19,497 bases of DNA, taken from NCBI GenBank assembly GCA_019058275.1, contig JAHLVW010000109.1, positions 1 to 19,497 of the forward strand. The letters are read 5' to 3'. The DNA is from Candidatus Heimdallarchaeota archaeon (GTDB lineage Archaea; Asgardarchaeota; Heimdallarchaeia; JABLTI01). A program made the position numbers and the translations under genes. Of the stretch, positions 11,500 to 15,543 are shown in pieces (the stretch's first letter is position 1; the number at the start of each line of letters is the position of its first letter). The notes beneath the pieces are model-generated. The model was not told the origin of the DNA and made no database searches. It saw only the letters and a list, made by a program, of their open reading frames with translations.

Positions 11500-11919
11500 C
11501 TATAGGTTATCTTCTTCCCTAATTCTTTTTGTATCCAGGAGAGAAAGGTTCTTAGCCGTGCTTCTTGATTTTTGTATCAATTGTTTACTCGGATAAAAAA
11601 TAATTGCTTTAGTAATCTTCTCTTGTAAAAGTAGTTCTAGAATAGCAAAGAGGAAAATTTCTGTTTTTCCACTCCCAGTTCCTGCGGTTAAAAGCAAATC
11701 TTTTCCGAGTATTATTTTTGGAATAGCTTCTGCTTGAAATTCAAAAGGATTATTTTGAAGATACTTATCAATTATAGGTCCTAAATGGATTAATTCCATC
11801 GAAGTATCAGACCAAGATGTAGGCATAACAGGATTAGTTGATTTGGGAAGCTCACAGACAAATTTCATCGGAGGAAGAGTAATCTCTTCTCCTATCGAGG
11901 TCTTATTCTCAGCTTTCAT
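11500..11919 (-). CDS. 5' part of the same SF2 helicase (frameshift at T5 run 11569-11573)
   Basis: Q motif PFEFQAEAI, Walker A AGTGSGKT, motif Ia YPSKQL. Likely start is ATG 11919, overlapping the upstream stop. Removing one base from the homopolymer gives a continuous 814-aa helicase. Confidence 0.85.
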   Translation of the reverse strand: MKAENKTSIGEEITLPPMKFVCELPKSTNPVMPTSWSDTSMELIHLGPIIDKYLQNNPFEFQAEAIPKIILGKDLLLTAGTGSGKTEIFLFAILELLLQEKITKAIIFYPSKQLIQKSRSTAKNLSLLDTKRIREEDNL

Positions 11920-14900
11920 CAATAATCCCCTCTTTGAACTCCTGTATTGGATACAAGAAATTCTGAATTGCATTTTTTACTAAAACTTGTTCTTCCCACT
12001 CAAAATATAGCTCGAAATCCTCAAGTGATGGTAAATAAGTTTGGAGCTTACAAAATCGTTCTTGAAGGATACTTGGTAAATAACTAAAAGGTTGGAAATC
12101 AGTGTCAGTTAATATATCAGTTAGTTTTCCGCGAAGTTCTCCAACCAAAGTAGTTTGATGTTCAATGGTAAGATTATCCCACTGTTCAAGCCAATCCAAA
12201 TAAGACAGTTGAACGCCTTCAAAACGAATCGTAGTTTCCTCTAGAATCATTGTAACTTGGTCCAACAATTGGAAAAACTTTCGAAGATACCTTTTATAGG
12301 CTTCTTCGAGGGAATGTGTTTGAGAAGCAAAATACACTTTTTCAGCAAAGAACTGTTCGACTAATTGTTCCATTTTTGGAATAGTTTTTTGTTTTACTGT
12401 GTATAAAATAGCACCTGAGGGGGAAACAATTTCCTCAACATCATCTGATCCAATAGTATTTGTAGCAATAGATTGTGTTAGAAAGTATAAAGCAGCTATT
12501 TTAATAGTGTCAATAAAATCAAGGAAAAATCCTCGCTCATCAAGTGCACTTGTTTTCTTTGTTCCATGCACAAATCCAGCAGATCCTTTCCAAGGAAGTC
12601 CAGTTTGAAGGTGTAAAACCATTAAATGGTCTTGCACCAAGAGAAGGAAAAAATTGATTAAAGCACTTATCGCTGAATACGCTAGTGTGCGTTTATCAGG
12701 ATAAAATTCCTTTTCTAAAACATATCTATCTCGAACTCTTGAAAATAAATCCAAATTTTTCTGTCTGAACACTTCCTTCAAAAATTCCCACATAAGATTG
12801 CCTGCCAGACCTTCACATAGACGAGAAGTAAATGCATTGTGTACATTTCGTGAGAGTAAAAGAATATCAAGAAAGCACCAATCGAAATCGATTAAAGGAA
12901 TGTTTGACAGGAGAACCTTATCCAGATTCTTCTGGAGTAAATTGAAGAGTTGATTTGTTACTGCCCATCGGGAGTAAATATTTGCATAGAGGAATGCATT
13001 GTTAGTTACACAAGTAATTCGCAAAGCAAATATGGCCACCACATGTTTAGTAGACAATGTTGAAACTACTGAAACCTCACCTTGCGCTAAGACTTGAAAA
13101 GCAATAGGATTAAAGCGTAGATGAACACCCTTCTCTTCTAAACGCGCAACAATTTCTGGAGCTAATGGTACTGATGAATATAAATACTCTAATTCCTCAA
13201 TCTTCTTTCGAATGTTCTCTATGATTAAATAATCTCCTTCTAAGGATACTTTCTCACCAAGCCGAATGGTCATCCCATGTGCAGGAACGAGTTTGAACTG
13301 ATACTCATCCCAGATCATCCCTGAAATGTCATAAAGAGTATTAACAAAAACATGTAAATTACCTTCTTGACATTTAACAATAATAGCCTCAGATTTCTTC
13401 TTGTTTTTACTTCGAGAAAGTTTGTAGAGTGAGCCACAATTTGAGCATGAGATTGTACTCGTACCTATCTGTGGCAAATAATCTGTACCAAATGCTTCGA
13501 TGACTTTTATGCAGTAAAGACATTTATGCATGAAAGTAGTTCCAAAAGTAGTTAATCCTTGGACGACTCGAGTTAAATCACCAAATGCTCCCAATGTGTA
13601 TGATTCCCGTTGTAAGGTTTTTGATGAGAAAAATCGACAAGGAACCGTTCCAGGTTTAAGTGGTTTAACAGCTCGGGAACGGTACTCATAAGGTAATTTA
13701 TGCGGAGCTAATTTTCCAAGGGTTGAAAAAATGGAACAAATCCCGGTAGTAGTATAAAACTGATACTTCGAACAATAAAAGTCAAAATAATCCGGGAAAT
13801 TTGTTATCGATGCAAAATAAATTCTTTGTCCTCTGGTTGTTGTCACTGTTTTGGATATTATCAACGGTTCAGCTTCTCGAACAAAAGAACGCAAGATGCG
13901 ATCAGTCAAATTTCTATTCAGTTGTAAAGCAAGTGCAACTTGAGAAACTGTTTGAGGATTTTCAGTTGCTAACACCTCAGTTAAGACCAGCTCGCGTGCT
14001 TTTTGCTTATTATAAAGCACATTCTTTTTCCTACTAGGTTGGTGATTATAAAAGCTCTTCAGCATTTGCTCTGTAATAGCTTGTAAGCTATCAGTTAAAG
14101 AATCATTAGCAAATCTTTGACCAATACTCGTCAGTAATTTCAGATTTTGAAAATCACCAAATGAAAATTTTTTTGTCCGAAGCAAGTTAGTTAATTTCAT
14201 GTTTGTTTTAACAGAATCATTCTCTGAACTTGACTCGTTCATTGCTGAGTAGTGTTTATGTATTTGCTGAATGAACTCTACCAATTGATTGAAAGATTGG
14301 TTGTACTTATATGCATCTTCTACTGGAAAGGATTTTCGAAGATACTCAAGTAATGAATCCCAAGTAAGAGCTCCTGTTTTCATTGCTGAGTACAGAAACA
14401 GTACTAGCTGACTGATGTCAGTAAGTTCAGCACTACTGTAGGAAATAGCTATTAGAAATTCCTCTCCGAAAGGTGTTAAAGTATAACGATTGTGTGATTT
14501 GGTTATGAATTGAAACGGACCTAAAACAGCTGAGCTAAGTAGAAGGAATGCTTTGTATAATTGCTTATCGAAGATTTGTTCAAACACAAGTTCATCAGGT
14601 TGTGAGTCTTTTTCTTGTGTGATACTTCGAAAAAGATAACTTGACTGCATCTCAGTGAACAGCTGCTTGCGAGTAAGATGTCTTTTAAACAATAATCCTA
14701 GCAATGGGATAAATGCATACCTGTAAATATCATCTGGTTTTGGTTTGAAGAGAGTCTCTAATTGTTCTAGTTGAAGACCAAAAGTTAAGCTCTTGTTACA
14801 TCCTGTCAATATTTGATAGCTTTCTCTGGAAAGAATCTGTTGGTCACAGAAGAAGAATTTTCGCAACGCCTTGTTTTTACGAGAAGTGTATTTTACTCTG

Positions 14901-14974
14901 AGCATGAGAACATCAAATAAATAAGCAGTTAGAAGTGACTGGTTTTGGTGAGTTAATGGATGATAAAATACCAT
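11909..14974 (-). CDS. cas1: Giant multidomain protein with C-terminal Cas1-like integrase domain (main part of frameshifted gene)
   Basis: Cas1 N-domain-like KVSLEGDYLIIENIRKKIEELEYLYSSVPLAPEIVARLEEKGVHLRF. Catalytic-domain motifs LCEGLAGNLMW (E721), FSRVR, SALINFFLLLV, GLP..GFVH (H803), FFLDFIDTIK (D819/D822). Upstream are YTLTPFGE (winged helix), an HTH (QTVSQVALALQLNRNLTDRILRSF) and CLYC...CSNC. Confidence 0.75.
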   Translation of the reverse strand: MVFYHPLTHQNQSLLTAYLFDVLMLRVKYTSRKNKALRKFFFCDQQILSRESYQILTGCNKSLTFGLQLEQLETLFKPKPDDIYRYAFIPLLGLLFKRHLTRKQLFTEMQSSYLFRSITQEKDSQPDELVFEQIFDKQLYKAFLLLSSAVLGPFQFITKSHNRYTLTPFGEEFLIAISYSSAELTDISQLVLFLYSAMKTGALTWDSLLEYLRKSFPVEDAYKYNQSFNQLVEFIQQIHKHYSAMNESSSENDSVKTNMKLTNLLRTKKFSFGDFQNLKLLTSIGQRFANDSLTDSLQAITEQMLKSFYNHQPSRKKNVLYNKQKARELVLTEVLATENPQTVSQVALALQLNRNLTDRILRSFVREAEPLIISKTVTTTRGQRIYFASITNFPDYFDFYCSKYQFYTTTGICSIFSTLGKLAPHKLPYEYRSRAVKPLKPGTVPCRFFSSKTLQRESYTLGAFGDLTRVVQGLTTFGTTFMHKCLYCIKVIEAFGTDYLPQIGTSTISCSNCGSLYKLSRSKNKKKSEAIIVKCQEGNLHVFVNTLYDISGMIWDEYQFKLVPAHGMTIRLGEKVSLEGDYLIIENIRKKIEELEYLYSSVPLAPEIVARLEEKGVHLRFNPIAFQVLAQGEVSVVSTLSTKHVVAIFALRITCVTNNAFLYANIYSRWAVTNQLFNLLQKNLDKVLLSNIPLIDFDWCFLDILLLSRNVHNAFTSRLCEGLAGNLMWEFLKEVFRQKNLDLFSRVRDRYVLEKEFYPDKRTLAYSAISALINFFLLLVQDHLMVLHLQTGLPWKGSAGFVHGTKKTSALDERGFFLDFIDTIKIAALYFLTQSIATNTIGSDDVEEIVSPSGAILYTVKQKTIPKMEQLVEQFFAEKVYFASQTHSLEEAYKRYLRKFFQLLDQVTMILEETTIRFEGVQLSYLDWLEQWDNLTIEHQTTLVGELRGKLTDILTDTDFQPFSYLPSILQERFCKLQTYLPSLEDFELYFEWEEQVLVKNAIQNFLYPIQEFKEGIIDES

Positions 14975-15543
14975 TGATTGTACAGATGGAAGATTCTTTT
15001 TAAGGGGGTTCGAAGAAGCGATCCTGGTGTGCTGAAAATGATCCGAGCATCACTGAACAACTCACAGGAAACCTCATTTGTTAGACTACTAATCGTGGTC
15101 GCTACTCGACAAGTTGGACCAAAAGTCGTTTGATGGCTTTCGACCAATTTTCTTGCATGAGTTGTTGTTGGAACCACTAACACTGTAGCTTTACCTGCAT
15201 GACGTGCACTGAGTAATGTTACTACTAGCGCTAAATCAAGACTAGGAGAGAATTGTACAGGTAATCGAGTAGTGATCTCATTTACATCATCAACCACGAA
15301 CATACAAGAATCTTTTTTTCTGAACAAAAAATCGAGAGCTTTCGTGGACAAGAACCTACTGATCATTATTGGAAAATGATAAATTATCTGACTAACAGTT
15401 CGAGGTTGATGTGCTAGGTGCTGTTTTGTGATTAATGCTGAGAAATTTTTATTCAAATTGCTTTTTGGATGTAAGTCAATCTTTTTGATCTGCTGAATGT
15501 TTTCTTCTCTGGTTACTCCTTGCTCCTCTATTTGATCATTCAT
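14953..15543 (-). CDS. 5' part of the giant Cas1-fusion gene; degenerate SF2 RecA-like domain (frameshift near 14997-15008)
   Basis: KATVLVVPTTTHARKL (motif Ia-like) and DARIIFSTPGSL (Ib-like), with no Walker A. The paralog at 1..591 reads through this junction in one frame. Adding one base gives 1211 aa. Confidence 0.8.
   Translation of the reverse strand: MNDQIEEQGVTREENIQQIKKIDLHPKSNLNKNFSALITKQHLAHQPRTVSQIIYHFPIMISRFLSTKALDFLFRKKDSCMFVVDDVNEITTRLPVQFSPSLDLALVVTLLSARHAGKATVLVVPTTTHARKLVESHQTTFGPTCRVATTISSLTNEVSCELFSDARIIFSTPGSLLRTPLKRIFHLYNQWYFIIH

Follow-up and report, generated by a model that had tools for sequence, protein, structure and literature searches.

Introduction

Asgard archaea carry Cas1 homologues (aCas1) that were reportedly described by Makarova et al. 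in 2020 (CRISPR J 3:156), where the helicase-Cas1 fusion architecture may already be drawn. These homologues are said to be more diverse than all other Cas1 proteins and have no demonstrated function, and a summary of them leaves their roles unresolved (PMC8730458). Casposons are defined by a family B DNA polymerase (PolB), inverted repeats and short duplications (PMC4046053, PMC9939771), and their targets are the 3′ end of the aEF-2 gene for family 1 and tRNA for family 2 (PMC9939771). Here, we analysed a stretch of 19,497 nucleotides from Candidatus Heimdallarchaeota archaeon (contig JAHLVW010000109.1 of assembly GCA_019058275.1; referred to in full as the window), in which a gene for a Cas1 fusion protein lies within an element associated with the 3′ end of the ppdK gene in Heimdall-group Asgard archaea. 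We read this Cas1 fusion as the integrase, inactivated only recently in this copy, of a site-specific mobile element that lacks a polymerase, a reading to which we assign a probability of roughly 55%.

Results

The first-pass annotation had read the interval 11909-15543 as one Cas1 fusion protein of about 1211 aa. The fusion was confirmed, whereas the single reading frame was not: the interval holds two overlapping open reading frames (ORFs) of 196 and 1021 aa, and one base is absent at 15010/15011, such that reading across the deletion gives 1211 codons. Intact homologues of 1212-1222 aa, one of them from a Heimdallarchaeota archaeon, are colinear with both ORFs. Residue numbers used here refer to the 1021-aa ORF, and 190 is added for the 1211-codon read-through. 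The motifs named in that annotation were all recovered in place. Sequence searches of Pfam, NCBIfam, PADLOC and the PDB, together with an ESM Atlas feature search, returned nothing for the split protein itself.

The Cas1 fold proposed for the C-terminal half was examined by structure prediction. When an AlphaFold2 model of residues 525-975 (predicted local distance difference test, pLDDT, 81.6) was compared by Foldseek, the best match was the casposase 6OPM (E 1.4e-8), and 50 of the 50 matches listed were Cas1 structures. VIA-align gave Z 17.1 against A. fulgidus Cas1 (297 residues aligned, root-mean-square deviation 8.7) and Z 16.0 against 2YZS (224 aligned, deviation 3.0); its best 12 matches were Cas1 only, and the first non-Cas1 fold appeared at Z 5.8. 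The Atlas comparison likewise supported Cas1 for this domain, hhalign against two Cas1 proteins from the CRISPR systems of the same genome reached 98% (E 8e-13), and the model and its structure matches contained both the beta N-domain and the alpha-helical catalytic domain of the Cas1 superfamily. No match to PF01867 was found in this Cas1 fusion; the profile matched a paralogue (C48) and the relatives P0046, P0053, P0068 and P0083. The fold was thus borne out, over a slightly larger extent than the ~12265-13279 segment originally assigned to it. E721, H803, D819 and D822, put forward as the catalytic set, fell on the canonical Cas1 E, H, D and E/D positions in both the hhalign and the PDB profile alignments. 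Among 138 family members, these positions are kept in 135, 131, 133 and 133, respectively, and the profile alignment showed that the whole integrase-type residue set, Arg and Asn positions included, is retained. As modelled, the C-terminal half of the gene is a very diverged Cas1 fused behind a dead helicase, with its canonical catalytic set intact, and we infer integrase activity for this domain in the intact copies.

The N-terminal half was modelled on the intact homologue P0003 (pLDDT 77.7), and the model matched Ski2-like helicases (Slh1, Z 21.2; Brr2, 19.8; Hjm/Hel308, 18.1; MrfA, 17.4). As about 330-360 residues were aligned across 650 target residues, RecA2 seems to have been lost, and this half is apparently a truncated Ski2/Hel308-like helicase that comprises RecA1, a winged helix and a ratchet. 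Walker A, DExH and a second RecA domain were not found in the N-terminal half. Library searches, profile matches and the P0003 structure matches agreed with the annotated dead superfamily 2-like domain, winged helix and helix-turn-helix (HTH). The annotated Cys clusters were also present, but the motif YCSKYQFY turned out to be a damaged CxxC, with Cys in homologues and in a sister strain. In the distant Asgard relatives P0068, P0080, P0083 and P0091, the helicase-Cas1 fusion is complete, with Walker A and DEAH both present, and in the tree these relatives branch nearest to the outgroup of CRISPR Cas1 proteins, at moderate support; for this reason, the dead helicase arm is best read as the remnant of an active helicase. 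A complete DEAH helicase-Cas1 fusion of another Asgard archaeon (L065, 439-3975) was followed by a tnpB gene 5 kb downstream.

The repeats around the subfamily of the window are copies of the ppdK 3′ end, and its elements follow a constant plan: ppdK tail, genes J and I, variable cargo, a tetratricopeptide repeat (TPR) gene, the Cas1 fusion, a helicase, a phosphoesterase and a displaced ppdK tail. This association with ppdK, which the first-pass annotation had not noted, is the chief clue to the function of the Cas1 fusion. A whole element of 16.6 kb in genome G004 runs from the full ppdK gene through all these genes to a tail of ppdK codons 793-900. The full ppdK gene was directly followed by J and I in G004, G005 and G007, and a ppdK tail followed the phosphoesterase, directly or behind cargo, in L001, L025, L027, G004 and G008. 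Both end modules flank defence cargo on a 32-kb contig. None of the element genes lies behind ppdK in G003, G006 and G013, so occupancy is patchy. In the present host, where the order was reconstructed across contig breaks, the site is stacked: ppdK is followed by a CRISPR-Cas island, element A (which carries the split Cas1 fusion), a small cargo block and element B, each closed by a ppdK tail.

Displaced tails begin at codons 789-796 and, in G004, L025 and the window, at the phosphoesterase stop codon. When the ppdK genes of G007 and G006 were compared, 0-3 mismatches per 30 nt were seen up to codon 770 and 16/30 nt in codons 771-790. The occupied ppdK genes of G004, G005 and G007 carry NDLTQ or NDMTQ, where NDLHQM is present in empty sites and in displaced tails. 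Of the two ends in G004, the displaced tail is the more host-like, at 82% to three other species; the gene's own end is 67% identical to that tail (aa). Since the G004 displaced tail is a host-like copy and the G007 ppdK gene is a mosaic, the element, judging from these sequences, is what supplies the ppdK gene end, and occupied ppdK genes carry foreign tails. A simple long target duplication was considered for G004 and rejected, the displaced tail being the host-like copy. The junctions do not coincide, as foreign sequence in G007 starts from about codon 772, ~60 bp in one sense from the usual tail start. The duplication around elements A and B measured 539 bp with 91% identity overall, ~97% in the first 250 bp and ~85% in the ppdK part.

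Several further observations were made at this site. Codons 771-790 are hypervariable in G003, G006 and G011, even among close relatives and including empty-looking sites, which suggests scars of earlier occupancy or escape. The island that comes first behind ppdK is the CRISPR-Cas locus (cas6 to cas4, cas1, cas2 and a long array), with a ppdK tail closing it (G000 C74 from 42553, C76, L062 13000-15542); a five-spacer block is duplicated in L062. The right end of element B passes into sequence that copies the neighbouring array's last repeat (L001 16728-17267; C104 236-774; L062 12536-13075). The 539-bp duplication begins at the first base of that repeat and overlaps the phosphoesterase stop; the bases just before the repeat resemble a decayed last spacer, and the precision may be due to chance. 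In G004, a sequence of ~40-60 bp is repeated five or six times between cargo genes past the ppdK tails (L044-L045; C19, ~8800-14100).

The genome of this host (G000) contains at least 14 loci of the Cas1-fusion family. Nearly all family loci adjoin the LAGLIDADG-HTH gene I, most together with an MrfA/YprA-like helicase and a phosphoesterase, and several with TnpB. The subfamily of the window consists of 14 sequences (support 1.0) with a single target, and targets differ among the subfamilies within this genome. The clades most closely paralogous to it in this genome adjoin TnpB genes, and the window's subfamily loci are without TnpB. The tree was built with FastTree from the core only, with two CRISPR Cas1 proteins as the outgroup and no casposase, and cannot place the family relative to casposases. 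The Cas1 fusion belongs with aCas1, as had been suspected: it is a diverged Cas1 in Asgard archaea, found outside CRISPR-cas loci and casposons. Behind the tnpB genes of G000 (C16, C33, C70, C105; and C27, C52), short conserved motifs were seen, GATAGACCA and TGTCCATAAAA, which may mark a guide RNA or element ends. A search behind the ten tnpB genes of this genome, three of which lie at contig ends, did not recover the published GTTCACTCA motif.

The Cas1 domain had been described as apparently active, a description that is not supported for this copy, given a real frameshift within the RecA-like domain and further decay. The break at 15010/15011 is letter-for-letter identical in the independent assembly GCA_019058195.1 (99.8% identical) and is not listed as a gap in the 117-fold X3 contig from another sample; it is common to two strains, and an assembly error was therefore rejected as the source of the split. 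The frameshifts in the partner helicase differ by strain, lying at 11569 here and at 9906 in X3. This sister strain retains the Cys that is replaced by Tyr404 here (C404Y) and has a stop codon in a cargo gene. Ten close homologues of the Cas1 fusion are unbroken, and comparison with the G004 orthologue indicated purifying selection in both halves of the gene (ratio of non-synonymous to synonymous substitution rates, dN/dS, ~0.12). This copy is a recent and probably non-functional pseudogene. The unbroken paralogue of element B could act in trans for it.

Table 1. Features of the 19,497-nt window
Feature	Position	Strand	Remarks
5′ end of unbroken paralogue (element B)	1..591	-	starts at 591; continues on contig C93; 61% identical
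Gene I, 560 aa	739..2421	+	LAGLIDADG-like plus HTH; ~20 paralogues in genome
Gene J, 825 aa	2825..5302	+	nuclease signal (Mrr/Hjc-like) weak; forms left end of ppdK elements; 33-nt motif at 5185-5217 invariant
Second ppdK 3′ tail	5354..5446	-	left boundary of neighbouring element B
Small cargo block between two ppdK tails	5870..8588	+	200-aa ORF, LVIVD-repeat protein
Displaced, internally decayed ppdK 3′ tail	8639..8856	-	codons 862-900 recognisable at 8642-8758
Calcineurin-like phosphoesterase	8857..9477	-	stop codon is right junction of element
MrfA/YprA-like SF2 (superfamily 2) helicase with Zn-binding MZB (DUF1998) domain	9474..11973	-	split by one extra base at ~11569
3′ piece of split gene, 1021 aa	11909..14974	-	remaining RecA1-like domain, winged helix, ratchet, winged HTH, Cys region, Cas1 domain, short tail
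Cas1 domain	12074..13279	-	E721 12812-12814, H803 12566-12568, D819 12518-12520, D822 12509-12511
Cys clusters, probable Zn sites	13418..13780	-	Tyr in this strain (13763-13765) at residue 404, where Cys is nearly invariant
Second winged HTH	13811..14032	-	limits approximate; profile matches to winged HTH proteins, E 1e-4 to 2e-3
Winged helix of Ski2/Hel308 type (YTLTPFGE at 14485), with ratchet helices	14051..14743	-	limits approximate; P0003 model, Z 18-21 to Slh1, Brr2, Hjm/Hel308
5′ piece of split gene, 196 aa	14953..15543	-	~178 codons genuine; start of RecA1-like domain, no Walker A; match to DEAD below cut-off (E 4.5e-4)
1-nt deletion splitting Cas1-fusion gene	15010..15011	-	same letters in GCA_019058195.1; no gap listed in X3 contig
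TPR protein	15663..16658	-	conserved first operon gene in this subfamily
Two cargo ORFs without family match	16869..18388		379 aa on -, 110 aa on +
Second TPR gene, same element	18842..19497	-	runs into contig C104 (LAGLIDADG-HTH gene, J gene, ppdK tail)

The remaining features of the window are listed in Table 1. Leads to the identity of gene J are weak: an Atlas score of 0.85 to an Mrr-like cluster and one JGI name, "Holliday junction resolvase"; a PDB profile search gave no match. The 33-nt motif at the 3′ end of J recurs with 0-1 mismatch in L004, L001, G004, G005, G007 and L063, though the J proteins are 25-41% identical; it presents a TATA-like box on one strand and GGAGG on the other and is probably a cis-acting left-end site or a promoter. 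A 38-nt direct repeat (84%) is located upstream of the second Cas1 fusion (658-695) and upstream of the TPR gene (16649-16686), and probably represents an operon promoter common to both sites. In locus L001, element A contributes the left half and B the right half, the two meeting close to this 38-nt motif. The 379-aa cargo ORF (16869-18008), which by eye may be a relative of tRNA-guanine transglycosylases, is interrupted by a stop in the sister strain. We also considered a 31-kb circle, C104-C106-C93; because a near-identical assembly has a CRISPR array upstream instead, C104 was probably joined across a repeat.

Discussion

In the reading we favour, the Cas1 domain of intact copies would use strand transfer to link the right end of the element, at the phosphoesterase stop, with a target near ppdK codon 790. 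The ppdK tail carried by the element would provide the homology by which the left side is resolved, and the host gene would thereby be made complete again, with an end of foreign origin. Binding of target or end DNA would fall to the dead helicase arm, the winged HTH and the Zn region, which would perhaps also dock a separate active helicase; this helicase, together with the phosphoesterase, would process the intermediate. All the catalytic steps of this scheme are ones that we infer. The proposal that the extra domains recognise the target or the ends in place of Cas2 and a leader would fit the data, since no Cas2 or array belongs to the element and the subfamilies of the genome use different targets. 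The Cas1 domain is the sole known integrase fold in the element, and neither a tyrosine recombinase nor PolB was found on these element contigs. The number of family loci, the Cas1 fold, its catalytic residues and the purifying selection on the gene support the favoured reading, and a transposase reading was also reached for aCas1-TnpB loci (PMC10691335). It is likely, though unproven, that the Cas1 domain itself moves the element.

Several points weigh against this reading. Terminal inverted repeats were not found in G004, where the best pair reached 15/20 (shuffles, 14-15/20; the left end is approximate), and there is no short target duplication, unlike in characterised Cas1 integrases. Gene I, with or without TnpB, occurs at loci without a nearby Cas1-like gene, and the stacked ppdK tails flank cargo that holds no Cas1 gene (5870-8588). 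J and I are nuclease-like and could drive homing, and the genome encodes six tyrosine recombinases able to act in trans. The model of asymmetric junctions is built on few cases, and decayed tails can mimic such junctions. The scheme as a whole is a prediction from sequences and structure models.

The best-surviving alternative is a homing island, in which the LAGLIDADG-HTH gene product or J cuts an empty ppdK gene, host recombination copies the island together with its recoded tail, and the Cas1 fusion, helicase and phosphoesterase only process branched intermediates. The NDLTQ/NDMTQ of occupied genes against the NDLHQM of empty sites and displaced tails looks as if a recognition site had been destroyed, but the full ppdK gene of this genome keeps NDLHQM though islands follow it. 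Gene I is the most constant gene of the family with its ~20 copies, the variable junction offsets and mosaic tails suit co-conversion, and inverted repeats were not found; on the other side, I and J are only putative nucleases, and the conserved integrase-type residues, Arg and Asn included, speak against homing. Homing explains the spread from allele to allele but not the first arrival at many unrelated targets, and we regard it as unlikely.

An improbable alternative is that the Cas1 fusion, the YprA-like helicase and the phosphoesterase form a non-programmable anti-virus system residing in a ppdK hotspot and mobilised by a recombinase encoded elsewhere. YprA helicases have a central place in DISARM, Dpd and Druantia (10.1101/2025.09.15.676423), the three-gene operon is also seen in a different Asgard context (L066), the neighbouring cargo is rich in defence genes, and the roles of aCas1 were left open in PMC8730458. 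However, PADLOC gave no system-specific match, the operon is always at the right end while defence genes vary in the middle, and at least 14 diverged copies per genome, many beside TnpB, resemble a mobile family. That the split copy works as two chains or by ribosomal frameshifting, like naturally split paralogues of the same genome, is likewise improbable. In its favour, the 1021-aa ORF starts from an ATG of its own, overlaps the upstream ORF and retains the whole Cas1 domain, other subfamilies are naturally divided between separate genes, and two strains share the break. Against it, the break lies inside the RecA-like fold, away from the natural split points, is absent from ten close homologues and is accompanied by the strain-specific helicase frameshifts, C404Y and the X3 cargo-gene stop.

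Returning to the mobile element with a Cas1 integrase, a wider generalisation is possible but doubtful, namely that there is a class of polymerase-less Cas1 elements in which the helicase-derived Cas1 fusion attaches one end through strand transfer and the other through homology to a recoded gene tail borne by the element. The class would descend from active helicase-Cas1 fusions and would move 13-32 kb of defence cargo, whole CRISPR-Cas loci included, in a site-specific manner. If true, the archaea nearest to eukaryotes would possess a Cas1 chemistry unlike that of casposons and of CRISPR adaptation. A positive integrase assay would establish a third use of Cas1 beside those two and might yield a site-specific integrase for large cargo. 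The decaying copy of the window is the wrong one to express; the subfamily offers intact proteins, defined element ends, a target in ppdK codons 770-800 and empty alleles.

When compared with known systems, the locus is not a CRISPR adaptation module: no array or cas2 was found in the window, and the nearby array comes with a canonical cas1-cas2 pair of its own, which lies on C76 within a separate ppdK island. At E. coli icd, e14 and phage 21 use a tyrosine integrase and a single crossover point. As in the ppdK element, they supply a replacement 3′ end of a metabolic gene and leave a displaced tail, whereas the ppdK element encodes no tyrosine integrase and its two junctions do not coincide. 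The aCas1-TnpB transposons Cas1H-Asgard-1 and -2, with aCas1 as the proposed transposase (PMC10691335), resemble the closest paralogous clades of this genome, which adjoin TnpB; Cas1H-Asgard carries tnpB in the element, in contrast to the loci of the window's subfamily. Both aCas1 homologues and aCas1-TnpB transposons are already published, and a literature search of limited extent found no paper on ppdK targeting. With regard to casposons, PF00136 for PolB matched only C11, C41 and C94, far from these loci, and nothing in the complete elements L001 and G004. No short target-site duplication (15 bp in casposons) was found, the repeats being long diverged ppdK tails (67% aa in G004; 539 bp, 91% around A and B), and the ppdK element further differs in its missing inverted repeats, its ~750 extra N-terminal residues and the 90-540 bp of recoded target at its ends. 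Because PolB, inverted repeats and short duplications all fail, the ppdK element is not a casposon, yet its Cas1 fusion would work like a casposase. Casposons (families 1-4) share with it a Cas1-family integrase without Cas2, a gene 3′ end as the target and tandem insertion, and the M. mazei casposase 6OPM is the best Foldseek and profile match of its Cas1 domain.

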